Shown here one piece after another: positions 2,923 to 47,025 of a DNA stretch of 64,000 nucleotides. Location: the NCBI GenBank assembly GCA_964437465.1, contig CAYTGI010000001.1, positions 5,614-69,613 on the forward strand, in the 5' to 3' direction. A program made the position numbers and the translations under genes. The stretch's first letter is position 1. Every line of letters begins with the position of its first letter. The notes below the pieces were generated by a model. That model ran no database searches and was not told where the DNA came from. It saw only the letters and a list, made by a program, of their open reading frames with translations. Source of the stretch: an uncultured Candidatus Saccharibacteria bacterium. Lineage in GTDB: Bacteria > Patescibacteriota > Dojkabacteria > J137.

Positions 2923-3213
2923 ATGAATGATGAGTTGGAATCTGCTCATATAGATAAAATGATTTCTCCTGATGAATATTACGAAGCTTTGTGGAGAGAT
3001 TTTGAAGCTGGAAGGCTTACTAGACAAACTGATGAAATAGAAAAAAGAACTCCGCAAAGACCTTATTACGATAGAACTGATTATAACCTTAGAAATTTAG
3101 TTAGAAAAGAAAGAAGAAACGAATCTTACATTCCTGACCATAGTTCTTCTAGAATGCGGCTAAGAGGTGCACTGCACCAGATGAGAACTAGAGGGTATTC
3201 TTTAGAACAATAA
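2923..3213 (+). CDS. Hypothetical charged protein (about 97 aa; first ATG downstream of the glycosyltransferase stop)
   Basis: Open frame with no recognisable motifs; the ORF track extends it to 2827, overlapping the upstream gene. Confidence 0.3.
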   Translation: MNDELESAHIDKMISPDEYYEALWRDFEAGRLTRQTDEIEKRTPQRPYYDRTDYNLRNLVRKERRNESYIPDHSSSRMRLRGALHQMRTRGYSLEQ

Positions 3214-3240
3214 AAAAGCCCCGTTAGTTAAAACGGGGAC
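3212..3240 (-). terminator. Rho-independent terminator downstream of dnaK (can fold on both strands)
   Basis: Hairpin gccccgtt / aacggggc with a 6-nt loop, followed on the minus strand by a T6 tract; sits between convergent genes. Confidence 0.6.
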
Positions 3241-3261
3241 TTTAGGTGTTACTACTAAATC

Positions 3262-5190
3262 TTACTCTTTTTTATCCTTCTCTTCAATAACTTCCCCTTC
3301 TTCTACCGCTTCATTTTCTTCTTTTTTGGCTTCACTTTTTTCTTCAGTTTCTGGATTGTTTTCACCACCTTCAGCTTCATAAACTTTAGCTCCAACTTCT
3401 TGCATTATCTCCATTAGCTCATTAGAAAGAGTTTTTAACTTTTCCAAATCAGCATCGTCTTTTTCCAATTCATCTTTAATCTCTTTATTCTTATCTTCGA
3501 TTTTCTTCTTATTGTCGTCATCTATCTTTTCTGCATGATCTTTTAGAAGTTTTTCAGCTTGGAAAACATAACTATCAGCATCATTTCTTATTTTTAGTTT
3601 CTCCATCTCTTCCTTATCTTTACTTGCATTCTCTTCAGCTTCTTTTACTAATTTATCGATTTCCTCCTGTTCTAGTTGAGTAGAAGCAGTAATTGTAATC
3701 TCTTGTTCTTTTCCTGTTCCCTTGTCTTTTGCTTTAACATTTAAAATTCCATTCGCATCAATTTTAAAGATTACTTCGAATTGAGGTACACCTCTTGGAG
3801 CTGGTGGGATTCCATCTAATCTAAAAGTTCCTAATACTTTATTGTCCTTAGCTAAAGGTCTTTCTCCTTGAAGAACTTTTACATCAATTGCTGGTTGGTT
3901 ATCAACAGCTGTTGTAAATCTATCCTCAGACTTTTCTGCAGGAATTGTTGTATTTCTAGGGATTAGAACATGCATCTGACCAGCATTAACTTCTAATCCA
4001 AGAGACAACGGAGTAACGTCCAAAAGAGTAATATCATCTACATCAGTATCTCCAGCTAAAACAGCTCCTTGAAGGGCTGCTCCAACCGCAACAACTTCAT
4101 CAGGGTTAACTGAAATATTAGGCTCTTTTCCAAAAAATTCTTTTACCTTACTTTTAACTAAAGGCATTCTTGTCATACCTCCAACCATTACGATCTCATT
4201 TATCTCACCCTTCTCAATATCAGCATCCTTTAAAGCTTGTCTAACTGAATCGAATGTTTTATCTACAAGGTCAGAAACTAGTTTTTCAAAATCTGACTTC
4301 TTTAAAGTCATTCTGAAATGTTTAGGACCTTTTGCGTCAGCTGTAATGTACGGAAGATTAATCTCAGTTTGCTCAGAGTTAGAAAGCGCGATCTTAGCTT
4401 TCTCAGCTGCTTCTTTTAATCTTTGAAGTGCGGCAGGATCTTCTTTTAGATCAATTCCTTGCTCTTTTTTAAATTCTTCTACAAGATGATTGATTAGGGC
4501 CTGATCAAAGTCGTCTCCTCCAAGGTGAGTATCTCCTGAAGTAGATCTAACTTCATAAACTCCATCTCCAATTTCCAAAACAGAAACGTCAAAAGTTCCT
4601 CCTCCTAAATCGTAAACTATAATTGTTTGATCACCTGATTTTTCTAACCCGTAAGCAATAGCCGCTGCAGTAGGCTCGTTAATAATTCTTTTAACGTCTA
4701 ACCCAGCGATTTTTCCTGCATTTTTTGTAGCTTGTCTTTGAGCATCATCAAAGTAAGCAGGAACTGTAATTACTGCCCCTTCTACAGATTCTCCTAGAAA
4801 AGCTTCTGCATCAGCTTTAATTCTAGCTAGCACTTTAGCTGAAATTACTTCAGGAGCTACCCAATCTGAACCGAATTTGATCTCAACTCCTCCTTTCTTA
4901 CTTTCTCTAATTTCAAATGGTAGAAGATCAAGATCTTTTTTTACATCTTCATCAGTAAACTTTCGCCCGATAAGTCTTTTAATAGAGTAGAAAGTTTGTT
5001 CTGGATTAGTAACCATTTGGTTTTTAGCGGTTACTCCTACGATTTCTGATTTATTGTCTACGTCAATAGCAACAACAGAAGGCGTAGTTCTATTTCCTTC
5101 TTTGTTTGTAATAACCTCAGGTTTACCAGCTTGAACGAAAGCAAAGGCTGAATTTGTTGTACCTAGGTCAATTCCGATAATTTTCCCCAT
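3262..5190 (-). CDS. dnaK: Molecular chaperone DnaK (Hsp70)
   Basis: 642 aa; canonical Hsp70 motifs ([26 protein letters not shown]); acidic C-terminal tail. Confidence 0.97.
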
Positions 5191-6791: not shown

Positions 6792-7859
6792 ATGGTAGAA
6801 GTAGTAAAACACATAGAAACAACTATAGATAGTAATCTTAAAAAACTTGAACAAGATATTTATGATTTAGGTATAGATGCAAGTCCGCTTTCTAATTTCA
6901 TTGATTCTAAAATATTTTGTGATTTTAACGATCTCTCAAAACAAGGAATAATATCAATGTTGAGAACAGGTTTAGAAAAAGGGAGTATTAAAGAAGTCAT
7001 GGATGTTATTTTTAATCCTCAAGAACCAAGTCAAGAGAGGTTAGAAATCTATAAGAGAAGGCATAGGGAAATTTATGAGCAGAGAGCTATTGAGCTGGCT
7101 GACATGATAATTGATGGACATGAAACTGTCATTTTAAGAAGTGGAATGTACGGTGGAAAATCTACCTTGGCTACAGCTACTGAGAAAGAATTGAAAAAAA
7201 GGGGATTTACTTCCTCCGTTCTTATAGCAGGTATTTTGGGAGATGATTTTACTACTGCTAGAGCTTACGAAGCTGATGAAGGAGTTTTGCCAGCAGAAAT
7301 GGTTTTACCAGATACGATTGAAAACATTAAGTTTAAGATTCTAGAAGATAGAGGAGATAACGAAAATCATGTTGTGTATTTTGATGAATTTTCGTTTGTA
7401 GATGAAGGGACTGTTAGAGAAATAGTGAATTTTTGTAGTGAGGAAGGTATTAAATTAATTATGGCAGGTTTAGATGCTGATTATCTAGGTCGTGAACTTC
7501 CTACGATGTCTAGGTTTCGTAAGGAATGCACTCATGTTGAAGAGTGTTTTTCTTTTACGATGAATATGGATTATGACTCAGTTGAAAATGGTGAACCTAT
7601 AGGAACACATACAGCTAGATATGTGCGTCTTCCAGAAGGTGGCTATGTGTTAGATGTAGCGAGTCTTCCTCTAGAAGTTTCGAAAGAAAAACCATACATA
7701 CTTTATATTCCTGTAGCAAAGCAACATCATATATCGGGTATTCTTGAAGGGCATCCAGTTCTTGAATGGATAAATTCATATCCAGAGTTTATACCACAGG
7801 AAAGAATGCAACGAGTTTTTCAATTTAATTTGGAGTTACCCTATCAAGAAGTGGCTTAA
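6792..7859 (+). CDS. Thymidine kinase-like protein with an N-terminal extension of about 110 aa
   Basis: TK motifs from about residue 110: P-loop SGMYGGKSTLA, YFDEFSFV (compare IDEAQFF), MAGLDADYLGRELP (compare AGLD.DFRGEPF); C-terminal Cys ribbon is degenerate. Confidence 0.55.
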   Translation: MVEVVKHIETTIDSNLKKLEQDIYDLGIDASPLSNFIDSKIFCDFNDLSKQGIISMLRTGLEKGSIKEVMDVIFNPQEPSQERLEIYKRRHREIYEQRAIELADMIIDGHETVILRSGMYGGKSTLATATEKELKKRGFTSSVLIAGILGDDFTTARAYEADEGVLPAEMVLPDTIENIKFKILEDRGDNENHVVYFDEFSFVDEGTVREIVNFCSEEGIKLIMAGLDADYLGRELPTMSRFRKECTHVEECFSFTMNMDYDSVENGEPIGTHTARYVRLPEGGYVLDVASLPLEVSKEKPYILYIPVAKQHHISGILEGHPVLEWINSYPEFIPQERMQRVFQFNLELPYQEVA

Positions 7860-8197
7860 GCCTCGATTGGATCTTCTGGGGGTAAAACTCTAGTAATAAT
7901 ATTCCAATAACGGTTGTTCTCCTCATTTATCGTTATAGTATAAACTGTTTGGATTCGGCTAGAAGTCAAGTTGAAAAAATCCATTAAATGACTATTTATT
8001 TGAGCAGACAGCTCGTCTCTTGAGCTTATGTTTGGAATTTTTTTAAGAATGATTTCAATCTTGGGGTTACTATCATGAGGATCATAACGGTCTGATATCT
8101 CACTTTTAATTTCATCAACAATTCTATCTATCCAAGTTACTTCTAAATATTGCTCGTTGAAATCATCATAATTATCATCGTTGAAATCGTCACTCAT
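7856..8197 (-). CDS. Hypothetical small highly acidic protein (113 aa)
   Basis: N-terminus MSDDFNDDNYDDFNEQ; net charge about -14; no known motif. Confidence 0.45.
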   Translation of the reverse strand: MSDDFNDDNYDDFNEQYLEVTWIDRIVDEIKSEISDRYDPHDSNPKIEIILKKIPNISSRDELSAQINSHLMDFFNLTSSRIQTVYTITINEENNRYWNIITRVLPPEDPIEA

Positions 8198-8754
8198 TTT
8201 TTCTTTTTATTCTCAGAATCTTTAAATACTTTACTACCAACGGCATCCATCTGTCCTTGGTACTTACTTTTTCTCTCAGGTGCTCCGTATGGACTTTCAG
8301 CAGGGAATCCCATTCTTCCAAAAACTAACTGACAGATTCTTCTTCCAGCTTCAAGTTTAATCGGAACAGAGTTTGCGTTATACAGCTCTAAAGTTATTCT
8401 ACCCTTAAATCCAGGGTCAACCCATCCAGCGTTTTGAATAAATAGTCCCATTCTCCCAATTGAACTTCGTCCCTCAACAAAAGCAATTAAGTTATCTGGT
8501 AATTCAATATATTCCATAGTTGTTCCGAGAAGGAATGTATGGGGCTCAATTATAATTTCTGTTTTTGTAATTTTTTTATATTTAACTGGATTATTTAAAT
8601 CTATAACTTTCGATCTTCTATTATCTACAATTAAGAAATTATCTCCTAATCTACAGTCAATTGAGGCAGGTTGAATAGATTCATCTGTAATTGGTCTACA
8701 GACTAATTCGCCTGAAAGCAGCATTTTTTTAATTGTTCCGTCAGATAAAATCAT
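8194..8754 (-). CDS. dcd: dCTP deaminase
   Basis: 186 aa; N-terminus MILSDGTIKKM..., and a glycine-rich NAGWVDPGFKG motif of the dCTP deaminase/dUTPase fold. Confidence 0.9.
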   Translation of the reverse strand: MILSDGTIKKMLLSGELVCRPITDESIQPASIDCRLGDNFLIVDNRRSKVIDLNNPVKYKKITKTEIIIEPHTFLLGTTMEYIELPDNLIAFVEGRSSIGRMGLFIQNAGWVDPGFKGRITLELYNANSVPIKLEAGRRICQLVFGRMGFPAESPYGAPERKSKYQGQMDAVGSKVFKDSENKKKK

Positions 8755-8755
8755 A

Positions 8756-9373
8756 TCAATCTATTGATTCTAAATAATCTGTAATTGGTTTAGAAAGGTT
8801 CCTCGTCAATTCTAAGAATTTACCAATATTTCCCTCAGCATTTTCGTCATCTATTATGGTTGGAACCTCATCAACGAAAATGAGTATTCGCCTATCTTCA
8901 GTTTCTCCCTCTTCTAGTTCAACACCACTATCTCCAACTTGTTTACTCCCTAAATATATTTTATGTGTGTATTGTTTTTCATCTTCGAATGTGATCGCTA
9001 CTAAAACATGACCTTCTTCTGCGTTTTCAAAGGACCGAGTAACGTCAAACCCTACTTTTGCAAGCTCACCTTTTAATTGAGTTCTAAAAGTTTCATCTAA
9101 AAAGTATTCGTAGACATTTGTGTCAACCTCAATAAAAGGTTCGAAAATGTATGCACCATCAGTCAAGTTAGGAACAAAAACAACACTAACTCCATCATCA
9201 ATGCTAAATTCAAACTTTGGTGGTAAAACTAGCCTTCCATCAATATCAATAGGTACCATTGTGAGTGGTTGATCTTCTAAAAATCTTCTCATTTCTTCTA
9301 GAATATCTTGTGCAGTTATTTGTTCATTTGAAGGATCGAAATCATCATCGTAATTGTGTTTTTGATCAGACAT
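8756..9373 (-). CDS. Hypothetical acidic protein (205 aa)
   Basis: N-terminus MSDQKHNYDDDFDPSNEQ resembles that of the 113-aa acidic protein; no known domain. Confidence 0.45.
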   Translation of the reverse strand: MSDQKHNYDDDFDPSNEQITAQDILEEMRRFLEDQPLTMVPIDIDGRLVLPPKFEFSIDDGVSVVFVPNLTDGAYIFEPFIEVDTNVYEYFLDETFRTQLKGELAKVGFDVTRSFENAEEGHVLVAITFEDEKQYTHKIYLGSKQVGDSGVELEEGETEDRRILIFVDEVPTIIDDENAEGNIGKFLELTRNLSKPITDYLESID

Positions 9374-9458
9374 TCTAGTATTTCTAAATTAGCTGAATTT
9401 TATCACGTATTTTTAAAATCACTTTGATTTTTTTAGATTAGAAAAGTAGTATAAAAAT

Positions 9459-10286
9459 ATGCATGACGAAACTTATCTTAAACAATTAAAATTCGTTTTA
9501 GAAAACGGATCTAGGAGAGAAAATCGAACGGGTGTAGATACTTTTGGTGTATTCGGACTTCAAGCTAGGTATGATCTTGAAAAGGGTTTTCCGGCATTAA
9601 CTACAAAAAAACTTTTTTTTAAGTCAGTAAAAGCAGAACTACTTTGGTTCTTAGAAGGAAGTAATGATTATAAAAGATTAAATGAATTAGGTTCTAAAAT
9701 ATGGGATGCAAACGCTGAAGCTGATTATTGGAAACCTAAGGCTAAATTTGAAGGAGATGTTGGTAGAGTATATGGTGTGCAGTGGAGGTCATGGAACGGT
9801 CCTGATGATAAAGTTATTGACCAGATAGCTAATGCAATTGAAAATATAAAAACAGATCCAGGAAATAGAAGAATAATTGTTAGTGCATGGAATCCAGGTG
9901 AACTAGACCAAATGGCTTTGCCTCCCTGTCACATTATTTTTCAGTTTTATGTTCAAGGTGATGAGCTTTCTCTTCAAATGTACCAAAGAAGTGCCGATAT
10001 GTTTTTAGGAGTTCCTTTTAACATTGCTTCCTATTCATTACTGTTATCCATGATTGCACATGTTACAGGTTTGAAAGCTAAAGAATTTATTCATGTTCTA
10101 GGAGATGCTCACATTTATGAAAACCACATCGACCAGGTAAAAGATCAGCTTGAGCGAGATCCGTATGATCCTCCTAAGTTATGGTTAAATCCAGATGTGA
10201 GTGATATTGATTCCTTCACAATGAAAGATATTAAGCTTCAGGATTATAAGTATCATCCACCTATTAAAGCTCCAATGGCTGTTTAA
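9459..10286 (+). CDS. thyA: Thymidylate synthase (canonical ThyA)
   Basis: RTGVDT, LPPCHIIFQFYV with the catalytic Cys, and QRSADMFLGVPFNIASYSLL. Confidence 0.95.
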   Translation: MHDETYLKQLKFVLENGSRRENRTGVDTFGVFGLQARYDLEKGFPALTTKKLFFKSVKAELLWFLEGSNDYKRLNELGSKIWDANAEADYWKPKAKFEGDVGRVYGVQWRSWNGPDDKVIDQIANAIENIKTDPGNRRIIVSAWNPGELDQMALPPCHIIFQFYVQGDELSLQMYQRSADMFLGVPFNIASYSLLLSMIAHVTGLKAKEFIHVLGDAHIYENHIDQVKDQLERDPYDPPKLWLNPDVSDIDSFTMKDIKLQDYKYHPPIKAPMAV

Positions 10287-10288
10287 AC

Positions 10289-10786
10289 ATGGTTTCAATT
10301 ATTGCAGCAATGACAGAAAAGGATAGAGTTATAGGAAAAGATCAGGATTTACCTTGGAGGTTACCAGAGGATTTAAAACGGTTTAAAAAACTCACAATAA
10401 ATCATCCGGTCATAATGGGAAGAAAGAGTTATGAAGCAATTGGTCATGCATTACCTAAAAGAGATAACATTGTTTTAACGAGACAAGAAGAATACCATCT
10501 CAATGATGCTAAGGTATTTAATACATTAGAAAAAGCTGTTAATTATGCAAAGGAAATTGATTCTGAAATATTTATTATTGGAGGAGAGGAGATTTTTAGA
10601 GAAGCATTAAATCAAGGTATTGTAGATAAGATGTATTTAACAATAATTAAACAAGACTTTGATGGAGATACTTTTTTTCCTGAGATTGACGAATCTAATT
10701 GGAAAATAAGTAGAGATGGTGAGCAAGAAAGTAAAAATAATATACTGTTTGAGTACGTAACTTATTCTAAATCTAGTCAGTTATAA
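10289..10786 (+). CDS. folA: Dihydrofolate reductase
   Basis: 165 aa; IAAMTEKDRVIGKDQDLPW and PVIMGRKSYEAIG motifs; immediately follows thyA. Confidence 0.9.
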   Translation: MVSIIAAMTEKDRVIGKDQDLPWRLPEDLKRFKKLTINHPVIMGRKSYEAIGHALPKRDNIVLTRQEEYHLNDAKVFNTLEKAVNYAKEIDSEIFIIGGEEIFREALNQGIVDKMYLTIIKQDFDGDTFFPEIDESNWKISRDGEQESKNNILFEYVTYSKSSQL

Positions 10787-10915
10787 TCAAATCCATTTTG
10801 ACATCATGATCTTCTGTAGGTAAATCATCAACAATCTGATCAGCAAAACAAATTCCTATTTTGTAATTAACATTGAATGCCTCAAAAAATCTATCATACC
10901 ATCCAGCACCTCGAC

Positions 10916-11296
10916 CTAATCTTTTCCATCCTCTGTAAAAGCAACGCCGGGTGTAATAGAAACATCAATTTCTTCAGTTGGAGTGATAGGTTCTACATCA
11001 AGGTAAGCATTTTTCATTGCATCATAATGAAGATCATCGATATTCTCAAGTTTCCAAATTTTCAGGTTTTTTTTGTGAGGGATATAAACACTGTAATTAT
11101 TTTCAAGAAGGTATTCAATTATTGGTAAAGTGTCAACTTCATAATTAATGTTCATATAAACTAAAAAGCATTTATAATCATTTTCTTTAATAAATCTAAA
11201 AACTTTTTGGTGAATTAATTCAGACTTATTATCTCTATTCAATATGTTGGATCTTTTCAACTCTAGTTTTTTTCGAAGTTCAATCTTATCTTCCAT
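10916..11296 (-). CDS. 5-formyltetrahydrofolate cyclo-ligase (MTHFS), N-terminal 126 aa; the C-terminal ~47 aa continue in another frame down to ~10773 (apparent frameshift)
   Basis: N-terminal LRKKLELKRSNI...ITPGVAFTEDGKD then a stop. The adjacent minus-strand frame reads RLGRGAGWYDRFF...KIGICFADQIVDDLPTEDHDVKMDLIITD, which matches the MTHFS C-terminus. The frame change sits in ggaaaagat. Confidence 0.65.
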   Translation of the reverse strand: MEDKIELRKKLELKRSNILNRDNKSELIHQKVFRFIKENDYKCFLVYMNINYEVDTLPIIEYLLENNYSVYIPHKKNLKIWKLENIDDLHYDAMKNAYLDVEPITPTEEIDVSITPGVAFTEDGKD

Positions 11297-11370: not shown

Positions 11371-12519
11371 ATGAAGTTAGTATTTAATTCAGGATCTTCA
11401 AGCATTAAAGTAGCATTGTTTAAAGATAAAGAAAGAACGTTTGATCTTCATTTTAAAAACTATTCAGGGGAATCGTTTAGTTTAATAGTAAATAATCAGG
11501 AAGAAGTTGAAATTAATGAGAGTGACTACTCAGACTCATTTAACAAGACAATTGAAATATTGATAAATCATGGAGCTTTAGATTCTAAAGACAATTTAGA
11601 TTTCATAGCTCATAGAGTAGTACATGGTGGAGAAGAATACGATCAACCAGTTGAGATTACGGAAGAAACTATCCAGACGATCGAATCTTTTAACGACTTT
11701 GCTCCACTTCATAATCCGCTTGCTTTAGAAATAATAAAAAAAATTGCTAAGACTGATCCTAATTTGAAGCAATATGCAGTTTTTGATACTGCATTTCATA
11801 CAACCATACCAAAAAAAAATTTCTTATATGGATTACCATATGGATATTATGAAAACATAAAAGTAAGAAAGTTTGGCTTTCATGGAATTTCTTACGAATA
11901 TATTGTAAATAATGTTCCTGACTTCCCTTCTAAAGCGATAATTTGTCATCTAGGTTCTGGTTCAAGTGTTTGTGCTGTTAAGGATAAACAAAGCTTCGCA
12001 ACTTCTTTTGGATTTTCACCTGAAGAAAATTTAATTATGGCAACAAGATCGGGAGAGATAGATTACAGTGCAGTAATGTATCTTAAAAATAAATTAGCTT
12101 TGACAGATAAAGATATAACAACACTTATTAACAAGGAAAGTGGATTGCTAGGTCTTTCTGGATATACAAATAACATGGTTCAGTTGATTGAGGATTATGA
12201 TTCTAATGATAGAGCTAAGCTTGCTATAGACATGTATGTAGATAAAGTAGTTGAGTTTATAAGTAGTTTTTACGTAAAGCTTGGTGGATGTGATTTATTA
12301 GTTTTCACAGGAGGCATTGGAAGTGGTTCGGACTTTGTTAGAAAGAAAATTGGAGAGAAAATAAGAATTATAGGTCTAGGGATAGATGATACAAAAAACA
12401 ATGGCCAAATTAATATCGAAGGAAGTCTCGATATTTCAATAAATGATAATAGAGTACTAGCCGTTAAGACTAATGAAGAGCTTCATATTATCAATCAGGT
12501 AAGTAATACCATTGATTAA
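11371..12519 (+). CDS. ackA: Acetate kinase
   Basis: VFNSGSSSIKVALF, FIAHRVVHGG, KFGFHGISY and HLGSGSSVCAV motifs. Confidence 0.85.
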   Translation: MKLVFNSGSSSIKVALFKDKERTFDLHFKNYSGESFSLIVNNQEEVEINESDYSDSFNKTIEILINHGALDSKDNLDFIAHRVVHGGEEYDQPVEITEETIQTIESFNDFAPLHNPLALEIIKKIAKTDPNLKQYAVFDTAFHTTIPKKNFLYGLPYGYYENIKVRKFGFHGISYEYIVNNVPDFPSKAIICHLGSGSSVCAVKDKQSFATSFGFSPEENLIMATRSGEIDYSAVMYLKNKLALTDKDITTLINKESGLLGLSGYTNNMVQLIEDYDSNDRAKLAIDMYVDKVVEFISSFYVKLGGCDLLVFTGGIGSGSDFVRKKIGEKIRIIGLGIDDTKNNGQINIEGSLDISINDNRVLAVKTNEELHIINQVSNTID

Positions 12520-16292: not shown

Positions 16293-17474
16293 GTGAAAAC
16301 AACATACTTTTACAAAGATCTTCCATATATTGAAGATTTTAAAGATATAACTAATGAGCGACTTTTTAAAGATGCTCCAGCCGACTGGTACGTTGTTGTG
16401 TCAGATGTACAAGGTTCGACTATTGCAATTGATGAAGGTAGATATCATGACGTTAATTTTGTAGCAGCTTGTGCTACAACAGCAGTTCTAAATATTGATA
16501 AAAATACTGAATTTCCATTTGTTTTTGGAGGTGATGGATCAGCAATCTTAATACCACCAGAATATACTGAAAAAGCATCTGAAGTATTGAAGGATACTCA
16601 AAAATTCGCAAAAAATCATTTTCAACTTCATTTACGTGTTGGATTAGTTCCAGTTATAGATATTCTTAGAAGTCGACACAAAATTAAAATTGTAAAATTA
16701 AAAGTTTCGGATAATTACTTCCAAGCTGTATTTCATGGTGGGGGGTTAGACCATGCTGAATATCTAGTGAAAAACAATCCTAAATATCAAGTTAAAAAAA
16801 TCAAGATAAAGTCTAAAGCTGATTTCTCAGGATTAAAATGTATATGGCAAGATATCCCTAGTAAAAAAGAGGAGATTGTGAGCCTTTTAATAAAAGCTAA
16901 TCCAGTTTATGAGAATGAAACAAAGATTTATAGCGAAGTTATGAAAGAAATTCAGGATATTTATGGTGAAAAAAATGAAAGATTTCCTGTTAAAGAAGGA
17001 TCAATAAGAATTACCTCAAATAATAAAAAAATATATTTAGAATCGTTAATTGAATCTTATCAATATAAGAAAAATTTGAGAGAAACCTTTATAAGAAACT
17101 ATATCTCGAGCGTCAAAGATGCTGTTATTTCATTTTTTAAACGAGGTTGGAATTCATTAACTTTCAGTGCATATAAGAATACTTTCATTAATGCGATAGA
17201 TTCTGAAAAATTTGACGACATGTTAAGAATGGTTATAGCTGGGACATCTGCTCAAAGGCATAGGTTAGTTGGTTATCTTGAAGAAAAGTACCAAAATGGG
17301 GAGTTAGCTTACGGAGTTCACTCAACTTCAAGCGTTCATATGACATGTTTAATAATTGAAAGAAAAGGAAAGCAAGTCCACTTCATAGACGGCTCAAACG
17401 GAGGCTATACTCAAGCTGCTAAGGAGCTAAAGAACAGAGTCAAGTGGCAAAAGATTTATATGCAGACTTATTAG
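16293..17474 (+). CDS. DUF3095-like protein with an N-terminal class III nucleotidyl cyclase-like (palm) domain
   Basis: VVVSDVQGST (compare F.DI.GFT) and FGGDGSAIL (compare IGD...). The two Asp residues are 43 residues apart, close to the 44-residue spacing of the metal-binding Asp pair in class III cyclases. The C-terminal ~240 aa are unknown. Confidence 0.5.
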   Translation: MKTTYFYKDLPYIEDFKDITNERLFKDAPADWYVVVSDVQGSTIAIDEGRYHDVNFVAACATTAVLNIDKNTEFPFVFGGDGSAILIPPEYTEKASEVLKDTQKFAKNHFQLHLRVGLVPVIDILRSRHKIKIVKLKVSDNYFQAVFHGGGLDHAEYLVKNNPKYQVKKIKIKSKADFSGLKCIWQDIPSKKEEIVSLLIKANPVYENETKIYSEVMKEIQDIYGEKNERFPVKEGSIRITSNNKKIYLESLIESYQYKKNLRETFIRNYISSVKDAVISFFKRGWNSLTFSAYKNTFINAIDSEKFDDMLRMVIAGTSAQRHRLVGYLEEKYQNGELAYGVHSTSSVHMTCLIIERKGKQVHFIDGSNGGYTQAAKELKNRVKWQKIYMQTY

Positions 17475-20049: not shown

Positions 20050-21378
20050 ATGGAAGATTCTGTTATATTAACGATTTTTGGTGCCACTGGTGATTTAGTA
20101 AGAAAGAAAATTATTCCTGCTTTATACACTTTATACGAAGAAGAAAAACTACCTTCTAAAATTAAAATTTTAGGGTTCGCAAGAAGAGATTTTACAGGAG
20201 GAAAATATAATAATTTTATTAATGAATCACTTCACAAGATTTTAAAGGTTGATGATCCAAATCCTGGATTTTATGATCTTTTTGAGTACGTTCAGGGTGA
20301 TTTAGATAATGATGAAGGATTTAAAAAACTTGAGGAAGCAATTAAGAAACATGACGAGATTTGTAGAGAAAACTGCGTAAAACTTTTTTACTACTCAATT
20401 CAACAAAGCTTTTATGAACCTGTAACTGAACAAATTGCTAAATTTGATATGCCTAAAGATAACTTTAGATTACTAATTGAGAAACCATACGGGCACGATA
20501 CCCAGTCTGCGTCTGAGCTTGATCAGAAAATGAAACATCATTTTGAAGAAGATCAGCTTTACAGAATTGATCACTACATGCACAAAAAAATTGTGAGACA
20601 GATCTTAGATTTCCGATTTGAGAATTCAATTATTAAATCAGTTTGGAAACCATCTGAGATTAATAAGGTTGTTATCTCAACAAAAGAAGATTTTGGTGCA
20701 GAAGGAAGAGGGGCGTTTTACGATGCCCTAGGCGCATTAAAAGATGTTGGTCAGAATCATCTTCTTGCTATTGCCTCACTAATTCTAATGGAAGAGTTCA
20801 AAGATGAGAGTTCTGAACATTTCATTGAAAGAAGAGCAAAAGCACTTCAAAGCTTTAAACCTTTTGAAAACGATGAACAGATAAAAGAAAATACTTTCAG
20901 AGCTCAATATCAAGGTTACAAAGAGATAGAAAATGTAGATCCAGATTCAACTAGGGAAACTTATTTCAAAGTTAAACTCTTTTCATCAAAAGAAGGTTGG
21001 GGAGAAATTCCATTTATTTTAGAAGCAGGAAAAAAACTTGATAAACATATGAAAGAGGTTAAGGTTTATTTTGAAACGAATGTAATCTTTTTTGAATTTC
21101 ATCCAAACGATCAAATTTGTATTGGGCTACATTCTAATGAAGAAAAAGAAACATGTTTATACAAAATGGAAAATGAGTCTCGAAAATATCAATATGTTTC
21201 TGAGTACGCATTAGTTATTGAGGAAGCAATCCAAGGTAAAAGAGATTTCTTTGTTAGCATTAATGAGGTACTTGCTCAGTGGAGTATTGTTGATTCTATC
21301 GAAGATGGGTGGATGCGAGATTTGGTTCCTTTAGTTGAGTATGAGCAAGGAACTACACCGAGAAGTGATATTAATTAA
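20050..21378 (+). CDS. zwf: Glucose-6-phosphate 1-dehydrogenase
   Basis: IFGATGDLVRKKIIPALY, EKPYGHD and RIDHYMHKKIV motifs. Confidence 0.9.
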   Translation: MEDSVILTIFGATGDLVRKKIIPALYTLYEEEKLPSKIKILGFARRDFTGGKYNNFINESLHKILKVDDPNPGFYDLFEYVQGDLDNDEGFKKLEEAIKKHDEICRENCVKLFYYSIQQSFYEPVTEQIAKFDMPKDNFRLLIEKPYGHDTQSASELDQKMKHHFEEDQLYRIDHYMHKKIVRQILDFRFENSIIKSVWKPSEINKVVISTKEDFGAEGRGAFYDALGALKDVGQNHLLAIASLILMEEFKDESSEHFIERRAKALQSFKPFENDEQIKENTFRAQYQGYKEIENVDPDSTRETYFKVKLFSSKEGWGEIPFILEAGKKLDKHMKEVKVYFETNVIFFEFHPNDQICIGLHSNEEKETCLYKMENESRKYQYVSEYALVIEEAIQGKRDFFVSINEVLAQWSIVDSIEDGWMRDLVPLVEYEQGTTPRSDIN

Positions 21379-21482
21379 GAGTCAAATCCTAAATTCTAAT
21401 ATCTAAATTCTAAAAACGAACTAATATTGCATCATATTTTTCTTGCAACTAGCGACTATAATAGTTATTAATTAAATATTTT

Positions 21483-22391
21483 ATGAAAAAGCAAATTGGA
21501 ATAATAGGTTTAGGTAAGATGGGAAAAGGTGTAGCTCTTAATCTTGCTGATGATGGATGGGAAGTTATAGCCTACAACAGAACTGAATCAGTTACTAAAG
21601 AAGTTGAAGAACAATCAGAAAATATAACAGGAGCTTATAGTTATGAAGAATTAGTTAATCAGCTTGATGGTCCTAGAGTGTTATGGATAATGGTTCCTGC
21701 TGGAGATCCTACAAGACAAGTTGTTAGTGATGTTTTACCTTTACTTGAAGAAGAAGATATTATTATAGATGCTGCTAATTCCTACTTTAAGGATACTTTA
21801 GAAATGTCTAAAAGGATTACTGAAAAAGGGGTTAAATTCATGGATTGTGGAGTTTCAGGAGGCCCAAGTGGTGCGAGAAATGGAGCTTGTTTAATGATTG
21901 GAGGAGATCAGGAAACATATAAATATTTAGAAGAATTATTTCAAGATGTTGCTGATGACGAAGCTTATCAATTTTTCCCTGGAATTGCTGCGGGGCATTT
22001 CGTCAAAATGGTACATAACGGAATTGAATATGGAATGATGCAAGCAATTGCTGAAGGTTTTGATGTGATGAAAAATTCAGAGTTTGACCTTGATTTAAAA
22101 GATGTTGCAAGAATCTATAGTAAACGAAGTGTAATCGAGTCTAGACTTATTGACTGGATGCTTAAAGGTTTTGAAACTTATGGTGAAGATCTTGATGAAG
22201 TGTCAGGAAGCGCCTCTCATAGTGGTGAAGGGGAATGGACTATAAAAACAGCTAAAGAAATGGGCATACCTGTAAATGTAATTGAAGATTCGCTAAATGC
22301 GAGAATTAAATCTCAGGAAAACCCTAGCTATCAAGGCAAAATTATTTCAGCATTAAGAAATATGTTTGGAGGGCATTCTATCGATAATTAA
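21483..22391 (+). CDS. 6-phosphogluconate dehydrogenase, short (YqeC/Gnd-like) form
   Basis: NAD-binding IGIIGLGKMGKGVALNL, then GHFVKMVHNGIEYGMMQAIAEG. Confidence 0.85.
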   Translation: MKKQIGIIGLGKMGKGVALNLADDGWEVIAYNRTESVTKEVEEQSENITGAYSYEELVNQLDGPRVLWIMVPAGDPTRQVVSDVLPLLEEEDIIIDAANSYFKDTLEMSKRITEKGVKFMDCGVSGGPSGARNGACLMIGGDQETYKYLEELFQDVADDEAYQFFPGIAAGHFVKMVHNGIEYGMMQAIAEGFDVMKNSEFDLDLKDVARIYSKRSVIESRLIDWMLKGFETYGEDLDEVSGSASHSGEGEWTIKTAKEMGIPVNVIEDSLNARIKSQENPSYQGKIISALRNMFGGHSIDN

Positions 22392-22523
22392 AAAATAATA
22401 ATTATTAATTAAAAATTTTTAGATAAAGTCTGATAATGTAGTTGAGCTCTATCATTATTAATTCTTAATCATTAATTAATAAACTCCTTGTTTTCAATTT
22501 TAGTTTTAACTAAACTATAGTAT

Positions 22524-23432
22524 ATGATCTTTTCAAATCGACCAGAAAACTTTAAATCAGGTATTTTTTTAGATAGTGGGGACCCAAATGAGACTAGAAT
22601 GGTTCTTGATGAGCTTGGCTTCATTGATGGTCAAACGACTAATCCATCTTTAGTAGCTAGAAATCCAGAGATTGCTGCAAAATTTGATAACGGTGAGAAG
22701 CTAACTTCTGATGAGCTTTTAGCTGAATATAGAAAGATCGTACAAGAAATATCAGGGCTAATACCGGGAAGATCTGTTTCGATTGAAGTATATGCTGACG
22801 CTGAAACTTCTGCTGAAGAAATGATCTCACAAGCAGAAGAAATGTATACATGGATTGATTCTGCTCACATAAAGTTACCTACTACACCTGGAGGATTGAA
22901 AGCAGCTAGATATTTAACTGAAAAAGATTTTCGGGTGAACATGACATTAGTGTTTAAGCAAGAGCAAGCGGCTGCAGTTCATAGTGCAACTACAGGAGTA
23001 AAAAGAGGAAATGTTTTTTTATCTCCATTTATCGGAAGACTTGATGATTTAGGGCTTAGAGGAATGGACGTAGCAGGAAATATCTTAAAGATGTATAGAG
23101 ATCAAGGCTCTCACGTAGAAGTACTAGCTGCAAGTATAAGGAGTTTAGATCATTTGTTGTTCTTACTTTTTATGCAAACAGATATTATTACTGTTCCATA
23201 TAAAGTACTGAAAAAGTGGATAAGAATAGGAGCACCATACCCAGATAGAAATGATATGGATGTTTACAAAAGAGTTGATGAAATGGAATTCTTTTTTGGA
23301 GAAGATTTACAACAAATTCCTTTTGAAAGAATCGATATGGATAATGATTTTGGTAGCTACAATATTCAACATAAATTAACTGAAGTTGGACTACAAAGAT
23401 TTGCAGAAGATTGGAATAAATTAATTACATAG
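22524..23432 (+). CDS. tal: Transaldolase
   Basis: FLDSGDPNE and GQTTNPSL motifs. Confidence 0.8.
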   Translation: MIFSNRPENFKSGIFLDSGDPNETRMVLDELGFIDGQTTNPSLVARNPEIAAKFDNGEKLTSDELLAEYRKIVQEISGLIPGRSVSIEVYADAETSAEEMISQAEEMYTWIDSAHIKLPTTPGGLKAARYLTEKDFRVNMTLVFKQEQAAAVHSATTGVKRGNVFLSPFIGRLDDLGLRGMDVAGNILKMYRDQGSHVEVLAASIRSLDHLLFLLFMQTDIITVPYKVLKKWIRIGAPYPDRNDMDVYKRVDEMEFFFGEDLQQIPFERIDMDNDFGSYNIQHKLTEVGLQRFAEDWNKLIT

Positions 23433-23434
23433 AA

Positions 23435-23464
23435 TGTAGGGACAAACCATGGTTTGTCCCTACA
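23435..23464. other. Perfect 30-bp palindrome (15+15, no loop) between tal and transketolase
   Basis: tgtagggacaaacca / tggtttgtccctaca are exact reverse complements; begins 3 nt after the tal stop; no downstream T-tract. Confidence 0.6.
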
Positions 23465-23472
23465 GCCATAAT

Positions 23473-24336
23473 ATGAAGCACACTGGGCAAGAGTTAATCC
23501 AAAAAGCATACGAAATAAGAAAAGACATAATTGATATGTTGTTGGAAGCTGGCTCTGGACATTCAGCTGGACCTTTAGGAATGGCTGATATATTCACTGC
23601 TTTGTATTTTGAAGTATTAAATCATGATCCAAATAATCCAGGAATGCCAGAACGTGACAAAGTAGTTTTATCAAATGGTCATATTTGTCCAGTTTGGTAC
23701 GCTACACTTGCACATGCAGGGTACTTTCCAAGAGAAGAGCTAATGACTTTAAGAAAGATTGATTCACGATTACAAGGTCATCCAAATAGATTAGATACTC
23801 CAGGTGTTGAAAATTCTAGTGGTCCATTAGGACAAGGTTTTTCACAAGCGATAGGTATGGCATTAGCTGATATGTTAGAAGGTAGAAAATCAACAACCTA
23901 CGTTTTACTTGGAGATGGAGAATTAAACGAGGGTCAGTGTTGGGAGGCGTTTATGTTTGCTGGTAATTATCCACTGCACCATTTAACCGCAATTATAGAT
24001 AGAAATAATATTCAAATTGATGGTCATACAGAAAATGTTATGAGATTGGAGCCACTAAAAGAAAAAATTGAATCATTTAATTGGCACGTTTTAGAAATTG
24101 ATGGACATAATATGGAAGCGATTGTTGATGCTTGCAATCATGCTAAATCAGTTTGGGAAAGGCCTACAGCAATTATCGCGAATACAATTCCTGGAAAAGG
24201 TGTTGATTTTATGGAATGGAAACCTGAGTGGCATGGAAAACCACCAAAAGAAGACGAAGCAGAAGAAGCAGATAAGGAATTACTTGATACATTAAATTAT
24301 TTAAGAACATTGAGAGGGAATATTGAGTTTGAATAA
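23473..24336 (+). CDS. Transketolase, N-terminal (ThDP-binding) subunit
   Basis: GHSAGPLGMADIF and GDGELNEGQCWEA motifs. The ORF track starts at 23449 inside the palindrome; the ATG at 23473 (MKHTGQE...) is more plausible. Confidence 0.85.
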   Translation: MKHTGQELIQKAYEIRKDIIDMLLEAGSGHSAGPLGMADIFTALYFEVLNHDPNNPGMPERDKVVLSNGHICPVWYATLAHAGYFPREELMTLRKIDSRLQGHPNRLDTPGVENSSGPLGQGFSQAIGMALADMLEGRKSTTYVLLGDGELNEGQCWEAFMFAGNYPLHHLTAIIDRNNIQIDGHTENVMRLEPLKEKIESFNWHVLEIDGHNMEAIVDACNHAKSVWERPTAIIANTIPGKGVDFMEWKPEWHGKPPKEDEAEEADKELLDTLNYLRTLRGNIEFE

Positions 24337-24343
24337 CTCAATT

Positions 24344-24377
24344 TCCTCCCCCACCCCATCCTGCTAGGAGGGGAGCT
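24344..24377. repeat. GC-rich palindromic repeat unit (core CCTGCTAGGAGGGG)
   Basis: cctcccccaccccatcctgctaggaggggagc, a GC island in an AT-rich intergenic region; same family as the units at 26755 and 27241. Confidence 0.6.
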
Positions 24378-24397
24378 TATATAACAAAAAACTAAAA

Positions 24398-25390
24398 ATG
24401 ATACCGGACATGCGATTACAAAATGAGTGGTGGAATCCAGATAATCTGGAGAATAAACCTACGAGAGATGGGTATGGAGATTGTCTAGTTGAGCTCGGAC
24501 GAGAAAATAAGGATATAGTAGCTTTAAGTGCGGACTTAACAGAATCTACAAGAACTCATTACTTTGCTGAAGAATTTCCTGATCGTTTTTTTCAAACAGG
24601 TATTGCTGAACAGAACATGATGGGGATTGCTGCAGGACTTGCTTTAAATGGAAAAATTCCCTTCGCTGCAAGTTACGCAGTTTTTTCTCCTGGAAGAAAT
24701 TGGGATCAGTTTAGAGTAAGTGTTTGCTATTCAAAAGCTAATGTAAAAATAATTGGAGGTCATGCGGGGCTTTCAGTTGGACCAGATGGAGCTACTCACC
24801 AGGCACTTGAAGATATCGCAATCACAAGAGTATTACCAAACTTAACAGTTATTGTTCCAGCTGATTATGAACAGGCAAAAAAAGCAACTAGAGAAGCAGC
24901 TTTTATGGACGGACCGGTTTATATTAGAGTAAGTAGAGATAAAACTCCAAACTTTACATCTGTCGATACTCCGTTTCAAATTGGTAAAGGACAAGTTCTG
25001 TATAGTGGGGATGATGTAACTATTTTCGCTACTGGTTTAATGGTTCATAAAGCTCTACTCGCAGCAAGAGAACTCCAAGATGAAGGTGTAAGTTGTGAGG
25101 TAATTAATCTTCATACAATAAAACCAATAGATATAGATGCTGTAATAGCTTCAGTTCTTAAAACTAAAGCAGCAGTAACAGTAGAAGAACATCAGGTTAC
25201 TGGAGGTTTAGGAAGTGCAGTTTCTGAAGTGATCTCACAACAACACCCAGTTCCAATTGAAATGGTTGGGGTTAAGGATACTTTTGGGGAATCAGGAAAG
25301 ACGAATGAGCTTTTTGTAAAATACGGACTTGATGTGGAAAATATAAAAAATGCTGCAAAGACTTCAATTGCTCGAAAAGAAAATTCTTAG
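24398..25390 (+). CDS. Transketolase, C-terminal (pyrimidine-binding) subunit
   Basis: FQTGIAEQNMMGIAAGLA and GPDGATHQALEDIA motifs. Confidence 0.9.
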   Translation: MIPDMRLQNEWWNPDNLENKPTRDGYGDCLVELGRENKDIVALSADLTESTRTHYFAEEFPDRFFQTGIAEQNMMGIAAGLALNGKIPFAASYAVFSPGRNWDQFRVSVCYSKANVKIIGGHAGLSVGPDGATHQALEDIAITRVLPNLTVIVPADYEQAKKATREAAFMDGPVYIRVSRDKTPNFTSVDTPFQIGKGQVLYSGDDVTIFATGLMVHKALLAARELQDEGVSCEVINLHTIKPIDIDAVIASVLKTKAAVTVEEHQVTGGLGSAVSEVISQQHPVPIEMVGVKDTFGESGKTNELFVKYGLDVENIKNAAKTSIARKENS

Positions 25391-25399
25391 ATAAAAACT

Positions 25400-26725
25400 A
25401 TGGATAAACCTATTTTTAATTTCAAAGGCTCAATTGAGTTTGATGAAAGGGTAGTTGTTGCTGAAGGTAATAATCTAAGGAAATATATAGAAGTTCTTCA
25501 AGATATTGTTGCTTCAAAAGAATATTTAGAAGATGAGGCTTCATTATCCTTACCTGGAGATGAGGGTATCTTACATAGTTCTCTTCACTTAGCTAATGAG
25601 TATAAAGCAGAAAACCTTAAGTATGTTTTCGTTGTTGGGATTGGGGGTTCAAACTTAGGTACACAAGCGATTTACACTGCTTTAAGGGGGCAGTTTGATT
25701 ATTTAGAGCATACATTTCCAAAAATCATTTTTATAGATGCTGTGTCCTATAAAAATTTAAATCAGATTAACCGAGTTATTGATGATGAGGGAATTAATGC
25801 TGAAGATTTTGTAATTTTTGCGATCTCAAAATCTGGAGGTACTTCAGAAACTATCGCTAACACAAATTTTCTAATTCAAGTTTTAGATCAATATTTAGAA
25901 ATTGAACCAGTAAGGGATAGGCTAATTGTTATTACTGACGAGGGATCAAAATTCTGGGAAAGAGCGGAGAAAGAAAATATTGATAAATTACCAATTCCTA
26001 AAAAAGTAGGTGGAAGGTATTCAGTTTTTTCTAATGTAGGAATTGCTCCATTGAGCTTTATTTTTGGTGAAGACCTCAAAGATTTGATCCATGGAGCTAG
26101 AGTTGCGTTAGAAGATTGTATACAATTTGAGTTTGAATCTAATCCAGCTTTACAATCTGCTTTAGTTACTAATCTTTATCTTCAAAAAGGAACAAGAATT
26201 AATAATAATTTTTTCTTTGATCCAAATTTAGAATATGTTGGAAAATGGTATAGGCAGTTAATGGGAGAGAGTATTGGTAAAGAGAGAAGTATTAAGAATA
26301 AAATTGTTCATGCTGGAATAACTCCAATTGTGAGTATTGGTTCAACTGATCTACACTCAATGGCGCAACTTTATATTGGCGGACCAAATGATAAGTTAAC
26401 TAACTTCGTTTACGTTGATGAAGAAGATGATTTGAAGGTAAGTGAGTACGCTATAACAAAAGATTTAGTTGATGATTTAGAAGGCAAGTCTGCTTATGAA
26501 ATTAATAAAGCAATATATGAAGGAGTTAAAAAGGCATATATAAAAAACGAAAGACCATTTGTAGAGGTAGTTTTCCTTAGGGTAAGTTTATTTACACTAG
26601 GTTACTATCTTCAATTTAAAATGGTTGAGATGATGTATTTAGCAAATTTAATGAATTTAAATGCATTCGATCAGCCTAATGTTGAGGATTATAAGGAGGA
26701 GACTAGAAAATTGTTGAAAGGGTGA
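25400..26725 (+). CDS. pgi: Glucose-6-phosphate isomerase
   Basis: FVVGIGGSNLGTQAIY and ISKSGGTSET motifs. Confidence 0.85.
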   Translation: MDKPIFNFKGSIEFDERVVVAEGNNLRKYIEVLQDIVASKEYLEDEASLSLPGDEGILHSSLHLANEYKAENLKYVFVVGIGGSNLGTQAIYTALRGQFDYLEHTFPKIIFIDAVSYKNLNQINRVIDDEGINAEDFVIFAISKSGGTSETIANTNFLIQVLDQYLEIEPVRDRLIVITDEGSKFWERAEKENIDKLPIPKKVGGRYSVFSNVGIAPLSFIFGEDLKDLIHGARVALEDCIQFEFESNPALQSALVTNLYLQKGTRINNNFFFDPNLEYVGKWYRQLMGESIGKERSIKNKIVHAGITPIVSIGSTDLHSMAQLYIGGPNDKLTNFVYVDEEDDLKVSEYAITKDLVDDLEGKSAYEINKAIYEGVKKAYIKNERPFVEVVFLRVSLFTLGYYLQFKMVEMMYLANLMNLNAFDQPNVEDYKEETRKLLKG

Positions 26726-26754
26726 AGTCTATAAGATTCCAACGAAGCTAATAG

Positions 26755-26830
26755 TCTACCTCCCCTAACCCCTCCTGCTAGGAGGGGGAAGTTGAGTTTC
26801 CTCCCCTAGCAGGGGAGGACTAAGGTGGGG
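26755..26830. repeat. Cluster of GC-rich palindromic repeat units; the first 36 bp form a direct repeat with 27241-27276
   Basis: tctacctcccctaacccctcctgctaggaggggga ... cctcccctagcaggggagg ... taaggtgggg. Confidence 0.65.
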
Positions 26831-38062: not shown

Positions 38063-39124
38063 ATGTTTGAGGAGATTTTTAATAATAATACACCACAAGA
38101 TTATATAATTTCTTTAATGATCATGGCTACTGGTGTAATTATTGGAACGTTTATTCAGTTTATCGTTGTAAGGAAATTTAGCCAGTTAACAAAAAAATCT
38201 CGAAATAGCTCTGATGATAGAATAATTAAGGCAATTGGGAATAGTCCGCTATTTTTTTCAATTTTGATTTCTCTTTTTCTAACATCGATATCACTTGGTC
38301 TAAGTGCTTCTTATAGATCTGGATTAAATAGTTTTTTGATTGCTACAGGGATATTAATCGGTACAAGTGTATTAGCTAGAATTTCTACTGTAGGTGTAGA
38401 AACATACCTACAAAATCAGAGTGGAGGTGGTGAATCTTCCTCGTTATTTAAAAATGTTGGTAGAATTATTACTTATGTTATTGGTCTATTAGTCATATCC
38501 CAAACTCTAGGGATTGATATAACAGCAGCTCTTACAGCACTAGGAGTTGGGGGAATTGCAGTAGCCCTTGCACTACAAGATACACTTTCAAACCTTTTTG
38601 CAGGTTTTTATATTATTGCTGCAAGAAAAATAGTACCAGGAGATTATATTGAACTTAGTTCTGGGGAGAGGGGATATGTTGAAGATATATCTTGGAGAAA
38701 CACTACTGTTAGAACTTTACAAAACTACATTATTATTATTCCAAACGCTATACTTTCAACTGTAATCTTAACTAATTATGATTTACCGATTACAGATGTA
38801 GCTATTTTAATGAATGTCGGTATTAGTTACGATTCTGATTTAGATTTTGCGGAGAAAATTACAATAGAAGTTGCTAGAGAAGTAATGAGGGAAGTTGAAG
38901 GAGGAATTAAAGACTACGAACCATTTATTAGATATAATGAGTATGGTGACTCAAGTATAAATTTTACAGTTATTATGAGAGGTAAGACTTATGTTGATAA
39001 ATATCTTATCAATCATGAATTTATTAAAAGACTTCATAAAAGATACAGACAAGAAGGAATTGAATTCCCTTTCCCTCAATTAGATGTAACATTGAAAAAT
39101 CCTGTTAAAATAGAGAAATCTTAA
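38063..39124 (+). CDS. Mechanosensitive ion channel, MscS family
   Basis: LALQDTLSNLFAGFYIIAARKIVPGDYIEL with three preceding TM helices. Confidence 0.85.
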   Translation: MFEEIFNNNTPQDYIISLMIMATGVIIGTFIQFIVVRKFSQLTKKSRNSSDDRIIKAIGNSPLFFSILISLFLTSISLGLSASYRSGLNSFLIATGILIGTSVLARISTVGVETYLQNQSGGGESSSLFKNVGRIITYVIGLLVISQTLGIDITAALTALGVGGIAVALALQDTLSNLFAGFYIIAARKIVPGDYIELSSGERGYVEDISWRNTTVRTLQNYIIIIPNAILSTVILTNYDLPITDVAILMNVGISYDSDLDFAEKITIEVAREVMREVEGGIKDYEPFIRYNEYGDSSINFTVIMRGKTYVDKYLINHEFIKRLHKRYRQEGIEFPFPQLDVTLKNPVKIEKS

Positions 39125-39771
39125 AGTCTATAACTATCTTTATTTTCAAGTGCTAATTTCATCTCAGAAATAAATCTATCTTTTGCATCCTCAATCGATA
39201 TCCCAGATATATTTCCTCCACCTGCACCAAAATGGCCTCCTGCTTTAAAACCAATAGATTCAAGTACTCGTTGAATTGAAACATTATCTCCAAAATTCCT
39301 AGTACGCCATCCAACCATTACATCTCCTTCAATATTGGTTTCAAACATTATCCCATAGTTATATCCAACAACTATTCTCATAAAAACTTCTACATAGTAT
39401 TTATGTATGCTTTTTAATCTCCAGTTTTTGCCAAATCTTTCTATTAAAATATCATCTTTTTCTTTATCAATGATCAATATAGTTGTTTCTATTTCAGGTT
39501 GAAACTCTGAGTTTTCTATTCCAAAAGCTAAAAATTCCATACTATCCTTATCGACGCTTAAGTTCACAACTTCGTCGTGCCTTGCTCCGTATTTAATCAT
39601 CTCCTCTGCAAAAGTATATATACCTGGATACATTTCATTTTTGAAATATCTAGAATCATCAATAAGTGCATAATACATCCATGTAGCTACATCTTCAGTT
39701 GGTTGTACATTTGAATCTTTAATTAGATGGTCAAAGATAATTTTAGTAGTACATATATCATCTTTTCGCAA
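39121..39771 (-). CDS. DHH-family phosphoesterase (NrnA-like), C-terminal DHHA1 portion
   Basis: GGHFGAGGG DHHA1 motif; first codon is a TTG adjacent to an A-run; forms one gene with 39723..40169. Confidence 0.6.
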   Translation of the reverse strand: MRKDDICTTKIIFDHLIKDSNVQPTEDVATWMYYALIDDSRYFKNEMYPGIYTFAEEMIKYGARHDEVVNLSVDKDSMEFLAFGIENSEFQPEIETTILIIDKEKDDILIERFGKNWRLKSIHKYYVEVFMRIVVGYNYGIMFETNIEGDVMVGWRTRNFGDNVSIQRVLESIGFKAGGHFGAGGGNISGISIEDAKDRFISEMKLALENKDSYRL

Positions 39772-40169
39772 AGCAATTGAAACATCATCATGAAAGCTAT
39801 TGTATGATGGTCAATAGATATAAATTTATCTAGACCTACTTTTTCCAAAACCTCATTATATTTATTTGTTAGAAGAAGAGGCCATGAGGAAGAATCTACT
39901 AAAATAATAAGGTCATATTCTTCCCAATTAACTTTTCCAACTTGAGACTGATCAATTTGATTAAGGTTAGGGAATGATTTTAATTTTTCAGGTATAGAGG
40001 AGAATATTACCAAGCTAGAAGATTTAGAAAACTCATTCTCAATCCACCATTTTATTGTTAACCCACTTCCTAAAGAATCCGGATCGACAGGTCTTGAACA
40101 TATAATCAGAATATTTTTAGAATCTTGAATCCTTTTATATATTTGTTTAGAGATATCTTTTAGATCCAT
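39723..40169 (-). CDS. DHH-family phosphoesterase (NrnA-like), N-terminal DHH portion
   Basis: DPDSLGSG, ILVDSSS and SIDHH motifs; the frame ends 20 codons after DHH while the next frame carries the DHHA1 half. Confidence 0.6.
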   Translation of the reverse strand: MDLKDISKQIYKRIQDSKNILIICSRPVDPDSLGSGLTIKWWIENEFSKSSSLVIFSSIPEKLKSFPNLNQIDQSQVGKVNWEEYDLIILVDSSSWPLLLTNKYNEVLEKVGLDKFISIDHHTIAFMMMFQLLCEKMIYVLLKLSLTI

Positions 40170-42079: not shown

Positions 42080-42085
42080 TCCATC

Positions 42086-46306: not shown

Positions 46307-46363
46307 ATAAGATATTAACCTACATTTTTGAACATTTTATGAATTTATTTTCCTTTCATGTTT

Positions 46364-46686
46364 ATTTTGATACAAGATACTTAACATTTTCAAACTCGAA
46401 AATATGAAAATCTGTATTTAAACTGATTATTTCTTTATTTGGTCTAATCATATTAATTTCACGTTCACCCTTTTTATGTACAATTCAATTTAAAAGAATT
46501 TTTCTTTTTTGAGCAAAACTACCTGGAATAAAATCAACAACTCTTTTACCTATAATCTCATCCTCATTGTAGCCGGTGAGTGTTAATGCCTTTGGGCTGA
46601 CCCAATCAAAAGTTTGAGAGAAGGTATCCACTAATATCCGGATCTTCAATATACTCACTAGCTTTATTTAATAACTCTTTATTCAT
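46364..46686 (-). pseudogene. Decayed third tandem PAS-domain paralogue (two or more frame disruptions)
   Basis: Three frames together read MNKELLNKASEYIEDPDISGYLLSNF / DWVSPKALTLTGYNEDEIIGKRVVDFIPGSFAQKRKILLN / VHKKGEREINMIRPNKEIISLNTDFHIFEFENVKYLVSKI, which is co-linear with the two intact paralogues. Confidence 0.55.
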
Positions 46687-47020: not shown

Positions 47021-47025
47021 AGGTA

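Follow-up and report, generated by a model that had tools for sequence, protein, structure and literature searches.

A probable young frameshift pseudogene for 5-formyltetrahydrofolate cyclo-ligase (MTHFS) beside folA in an AT-rich bacterial genome

MTHFS (5-formyltetrahydrofolate cyclo-ligase) carries out the ATP-dependent conversion of 5-formyl-THF to 5,10-methenyl-THF. In the stretch of DNA analysed here, 64,000 nucleotides long and called the window below, the gene for this enzyme is broken: its conserved C-terminal part lies in a different frame from its N-terminal part. The question raised by the locus is whether the break is a mutation that the organism really carries, an indel introduced by sequencing or assembly, or a site where the frame is changed during gene expression. 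The window has 32% GC and a coding density of ~90%, and TGA is a normal stop. Named homologues of neighbouring genes are from 'Candidatus Dojkabacteria bacterium', and the genome is probably that of a member of the Dojkabacteria (CPR/Patescibacteria). The gene content fits a CPR bacterium, with a pentose-phosphate pathway, phosphoketolase, acetate kinase and type IV pilus genes.

The layout of the locus is as follows.

10289..10786, plus strand: folA (DHFR, 165 aa), the last 14 nt of which (10773-10786) overlap the 3′ end of MTHFS
10916..11296, minus strand: MTHFS N-terminal ORF, 126 codons and a premature TAG at 10918-10916
10922-10925, minus strand: the A4 run at the break, one A short of the intact frame
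10773..10921, minus strand: MTHFS C-terminal coding remnant in the -1 frame, 49 codons and a TAG at 10775-10773

The N-terminal ORF and the conserved C-terminus, continuing in the adjacent frame down to 10773, were described in an initial annotation made from the sequence; both were found again, as was the convergent overlap with folA, which is 14 nt long. The 126-residue product ends in ITPGVAFTEDGKD (TEDGKD) immediately before the TAG. The remnant begins RLGRGAGWYDRFF and ends HDVKMDLIITD, and the full -1 frame reading after the break is RLGRGAGWYDRFFEAFNVNYKIGICFADQIVDDLPTEDHDVKMDLIITD. The frame change is located at GGAAAAGAT, where adding one A to the A4 run gives GGA AAA AGA TTA, that is, G K R L, and restores a protein of 174 aa. 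Upstream of the break, the -1 frame stays open for just 13 codons, back to 10964. It has no ATG, GTG or TTG before its last seven codons, and no ORF is listed for it.

The assignment of the gene to MTHFS in the initial annotation stands, as the repaired protein passes the TIGR02727 equivalog model of NCBIfam with 135.8 bits (cutoff 84.9), covering profile positions 1-181 of 182. On Pfam PF01812 its score is 113.4 bits, spanning positions 1-185 of 186, compared with 40.1 bits and positions 1-132 for the truncated ORF. Solved examples of the family include 2jcb (Bacillus anthracis), 1sou (Aquifex) and 1ydm (YqgN), and the repaired protein aligns end to end with the first two. As in these bacterial enzymes, the PGVAF...RLGxGxGxYDR and HDxxMD motifs are present and collinear. 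Unlike them, the gene is interrupted: translation ends at the TAG at 10918-10916 after 126 codons, and the translatable ORF lacks the conserved C-terminal motifs. Of the 17 columns that are invariant in an 11-sequence alignment, every one is preserved; ten fall in the out-of-frame part. R126, L127, G128, G130, G132, D135, C150, P160, D165 and D169 are all retained, encoded in the -1 frame.

Comparison with relatives places the break precisely. In the protein database, the orthologues of the two closest relatives are intact: one is 174 aa long and 57% identical (P0002, from loci L001 and L002), and the other is 176 aa long and 53% identical (P0003, from locus L003). A search for an allele from the same species yielded, in that database, just these two and the window's own fragments (the 126-aa one being P0001). 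The genome and metagenome contig collections gave no such allele either, the relatives there being at most 45% identical. The other aligned homologues are likewise single ORFs, which answers the earlier call for a check that orthologues are intact in relatives. When the DNA is aligned with the three intact genes at L001, L002 and L003, the window needs one gap only, a single nucleotide in length, at GGAAA-AGATTAGG. The gap lies in the A4 run to which the initial annotation had mapped the break, and its direction is settled by the orthologues as one A missing. Thus, with a single 1-nt gap and the invariant columns retained, the break is a single-base loss specific to this genome.

L001 and L002 are syntenic with the window, in that MTHFS is convergent with folA-thyA there, with an overlap of 18 nt. 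The 14-nt overlap in the window is ordinary gene packing, common to the relatives. At L003 the order is ackA-MTHFS, and thyX replaces thyA-folA beside MTHFS. In the window a cluster of nucleotide and one-carbon genes surrounds MTHFS (6792-10786 and 11371-12519); its members are a 355-aa protein with a weak thymidine-kinase domain, dCTP deaminase, thyA, folA and ackA.

We consider the gene to be most likely a young and real frameshift pseudogene. A real 1-bp deletion would have shortened an A5 run, reading Lys-Arg (AAA-AGA), to A4, and translation would then reach the TAG two codons on, giving the 126-aa fragment. Because the conserved C-terminal segments, RLGxGxG(Y/W)YDR and HDxxMD, are missing from it, the fragment is presumably inactive. 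The downstream 49 codons, having no start codon of their own, would not be expressed separately. The age of the lesion is judged from three properties: it is the only lesion in the gene, all family-invariant residues are still encoded, and divergence is not above that of folA, MTHFS and folA each being 57% identical to their L001 orthologues. A pseudogene of this kind is an ordinary feature, and it involves no new mechanism. MTHFS would be among the disrupted accessory genes of the window, which number at least four, in a lineage in which gene loss may be ongoing. The other three are as follows.

39121..40169, minus strand: a DHH-family (NrnA-like) gene, split into ORFs of 148 aa and 216 aa
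44763..46306, minus strand: a fusion gene of VOC (MhqA-like dioxygenase) and MhqD-like esterase, with an A missing in the A6 run at 46214-46219
46362..46686, minus strand: a third PAS-domain paralogue, in which the frame is broken at 46628-46638 (GATATTAGTGG) and a TGA stands in frame at 46485-46487

In total, the 64-kb window holds five lesions in four genes, and two of the five are homopolymer indels (A4 and A6).

The NrnA-like break is at 39796-39803, directly after SIDHH, where there is no homopolymer. The relatives of the gene are intact (7 of 7, 308-354 aa) and have four residues between DHH and F/H, against 8 nt in the window; from this comparison the lesion is probably a 4-nt deletion. 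The initial annotation had placed the break at GAAAAGAT and proposed this string as a context shared with the MTHFS break. That proposal fails. The copy in the NrnA-like gene (39760-39767, encoding LRKDD) sits in the correct C-terminal frame, since FHDDVSIALRKDDICT aligns there with the relatives' FHSEVPLALRIDDICT, and the true break is ~35 nt upstream of it. The window contains 11 copies of the string where 10.1 are expected, and nine of these copies are in unbroken sequence. It is therefore rejected as a special motif, on its chance frequency and on the position of the NrnA-like break. The gene is 72% identical to that of a relative, its neighbours spanning 50-82%. For MTHFS and the NrnA-like gene alike, the single lesion per gene, together with orthologue divergence no greater than that of folA or the neighbours, points to recent inactivation.

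The break of the VOC-esterase gene at its A6 run was correctly identified earlier: across the site the repaired protein reads GLRFVKKTVNFDAPDVYHLYFGD, in agreement with positions at which relatives do not vary. Unbroken homologues of the fusion, 513-555 aa long, are widespread; the window's fragment is 459 aa. The PAS pseudogene is an addition to the initial annotation. Intact tandem copies lie at 46679-47020 and 47026-47376, and the repaired third paralogue aligns over its full length with these two neighbours. Its frame break is a 2-nt deletion (or a 1-nt insertion) at an AT repeat. An alternative genetic code for the in-frame TGA is rejected, as TGA is the normal stop of 12 window genes. 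With five random lesions on coding sequence, the probability that two fall in one gene of at most 400 nt, as in this 325-nt gene, is 0.004. Such clustering argues for a true pseudogene under relaxed selection.

Three further ORF pairs (1668/2827, 41392/41651 and 50600/51438) were considered as frameshifts and set aside. They look like normal separate genes and are not linked by Pfam, and the arrangement of the 41392/41651 pair is identical in a relative. Transketolase is also encoded by two genes, the N part at 23449-24336 and the C part at 24398-25390; this looks like the normal split rather than a frameshift. The two genes lie in a carbon-metabolism block (20050-29911) that comprises G6PD, 6PGD, transaldolase, transketolase, PGI and phosphoketolase, and a gene for a DUF559/Vsr-like endonuclease (26881-27267) is located inside the block. 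A type IV pilus-like cluster at 57797-61444 encodes two proteins with the prepilin-type N-methylation motif, a PilB-like ATPase (T2SSE) and a PilC-like platform protein (T2SSF). Type IV pilus clusters are common in CPR bacteria.

An ORF-poor gap of 829 nt (55445-56275) surrounds tRNA-Ser(GGA) (55956-56042). It contains GC-rich islands of ~50% GC at 55500-55700 and 56100-56200, in a genome of 32% GC. On the plus strand, the segment 55490-55720 has a fold z of -2.83, a value that none of 200 shuffles reaches; an Rfam search of the gap gave no match at E ≤ 1. The gap may hold an undescribed structured RNA. Adjoining a GC-rich island is a 47-aa ORF on the plus strand (55655-55798) with the sequence ...VLYLATKTKNKQIYTGYTSNLRRRVKEHKSV and an early stop. 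It presumably resembles the N-terminus of small GIY-YIG nuclease proteins, and it may be a further gene remnant.

The alternative that survives best is an indel error of sequencing or assembly. That is, the organism would have the A5 run and a normal MTHFS of 174 aa, and the consensus would have lost one A. The break is indeed a single-base loss in an A run, followed by a perfectly conserved frame, and the collections searched hold no second genome of the same species. The evidence bearing on this comes from Logan, an independent k-mer assembly of public runs. Three of its contigs, all from SRR7048222, match the window: L044 corresponds to 41637-47835, L045 to 8542-10618 and L046 to 37731-39792. 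Over their 10,338 bp they are 100% identical to the window, and their alignment needs no gap. The A6 frameshift of the VOC-esterase gene, the lesion analogous to that of MTHFS, is present in L044, as are the two lesions of the PAS gene, which means that three of the five lesions are reproduced exactly. Thus, these lesions come from the reads and are not the product of one assembler. Since the 31-mer contigs are 100% identical to the window, we infer that the reads are accurate (short-read, Illumina). The MTHFS site itself, at 10922-10925, is outside the Logan contigs, L045 stopping at 10618, a point in favour of an error. Logan gave no record for the 126-aa MTHFS ORF, folA, ackA, the N-terminal NrnA ORF, the 183-aa neighbour or the AcrB-like gene.

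L046 ends at 39792, 4 nt from the inferred NrnA-like deletion junction (39796-39803). The chance that one of the six known Logan contig ends lies at most 11 nt from any of the five lesions is ~0.01 (5 × 23 nt / 64,000 nt × 6). The read set may be polymorphic at this position, with intact and deleted alleles forming a bubble.

The distribution of runs and lesions also speaks against an error. An A4 run is short, whereas all 67 A/T runs of at least 7 nt inside ORFs stay in frame, the longest run in the window being 9 nt; moreover, long A/T runs are not depleted in comparison with relatives assembled from Illumina data. Apart from the two homopolymer indels, the lesions comprise a nonsense TGA, an indel at an AT repeat and what is probably a 4-nt deletion outside any repeat, and the clustering of lesions in the small PAS gene is a further argument against error. 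The closest relative, the MAG GCA_964635995.1, derives from Illumina NextSeq data of thermal swamp sediment (PMC8027834). Its contig CAZWRA010000001.1 (L042) has three broken genes in 21 kb, as follows.

2672-2985: a PAS gene with a stop and a frameshift
3028-4013: an Ldh_2 gene split into ORFs of 88 aa and 246 aa
16090-16693: a DUF3095 remnant spread over three frames, the window orthologue of which (16293-17474) is intact

Part of these broken genes lie in a syntenic tRNA-PAS-...-DinB region. Taken together, the evidence makes an indel error at the MTHFS site unlikely. The initial annotation had left the choice between recurrent homopolymer errors and genes that are decaying or prone to slippage. 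The lesion spectrum, the Logan contigs and the in-frame runs favour decay; slippage is without support from sequence or conservation, as the next considerations indicate.

Under the slippage alternative, the deletion is real and is rescued: a -1 slip of tRNA-Lys on A_AAA, or slippage of RNA polymerase, yields some full-length MTHFS. In its favour, GG A_AAA GAU is a minimal Z_ZZN motif in the right register, and the slip recreates DGKRLGRG exactly. The shiftiness of Z_ZZN and A_AAG, and corrective frameshifting in reduced genomes, have been reviewed (PMC5009743), and in E. coli 1-bp deletions are suppressed, without any programmed signal, at 1-10% in aggregate (PMC10861913). As in the frameshifting of dnaX (A_AAA_AAG) and of IS transposases, the shift needed is -1, on a lysine AAA preceded by A. 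Unlike those systems, the MTHFS site lacks a heptamer, a stimulatory structure and conservation in orthologues. Its zero frame, GAU GGA AAA GAU, offers the A_AAA tetranucleotide but not a heptamer of the form X_XXY_YYZ, and re-pairing of GGA on UGG is not possible. The Shine-Dalgarno-like GAGGA is only ~4 nt upstream of the site. No stimulatory stem-loop or pseudoknot is apparent downstream, the fold z against shuffles being +0.73 for 10840-10915 and -0.28 for 10860-10935; at the VOC site z is +0.50. Since the orthologues are single ORFs, the break is not shared with them, and no shift motif at all accompanies the other breaks in the window. For RNA polymerase, the A4 run is far below the A/T runs of ~9 or more at which transcriptional slippage occurs (PMC5009743). 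The host genome is small and AT-rich, like those of Buchnera and Blochmannia, where slippage on poly(A) rescues genes, but the runs there are of 9-10 or more A, against four here (PMC5009743).

We therefore regard rescue by slippage as most improbable. If it were true, the trans-frame peptide would be DVSITPGVAFTEDGKR / LGRGAGWYDR (...TEDGKRLGR...). A related proposal, that the allele is leaky, with tRNA-Lys slipping at A_AAA, possibly also at the VOC A6 run, and a few percent of native full-length enzyme being made, is equally hard to credit. Given the unprogrammed suppression reported for E. coli (PMC10861913), a trace of full-length MTHFS is possible; there is no sign of selection for it. 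Were the leaky reading true, short A-run indels in CPR genomes would be tolerated low-expression alleles and not null ones. The last alternative, a split gene whose N- and C-terminal polypeptides assemble into active enzyme, can draw on the conserved residues present in both parts, but a two-piece MTHFS is hardly conceivable, since the C-terminal part lacks a start codon of its own until seven codons before its stop and the homologues aligned or examined in detail are all single chains.

The preferred reading, a young frameshift pseudogene, agrees with what is seen in reduced and host-dependent bacteria. The loss of one base from an A run, in a compact genome rich in A and T (32% GC), is like the frameshift pseudogenes of such bacteria, as is the involvement of several accessory genes, with relatives carrying other broken genes. 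Unlike the massive pseudogenisation of recent endosymbionts (PMC9166423), the decay here is early and at a low level, with a coding density of ~90% and four of ~66 genes affected. Conversely, for a streamlined genome of this coding density, four broken genes of ~66 are rather many, and to that extent the number counts against the pseudogene reading.

The consequences for annotation and metabolism are as follows. A single pseudogene spanning both MTHFS pieces is the appropriate annotation, in place of a short 'MTHFS family protein'. In metabolic reconstruction, the genome would, on its sequence, be scored as having no functional MTHFS for the recycling of 5-formyl-THF, even though the adjacent thyA and folA are intact. 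With four broken genes of ~66 in the window and three in 21 kb of the closest relative, this Dojkabacteria lineage seems to carry several young pseudogenes, as would fit a reduction of CPR genomes that is still under way.
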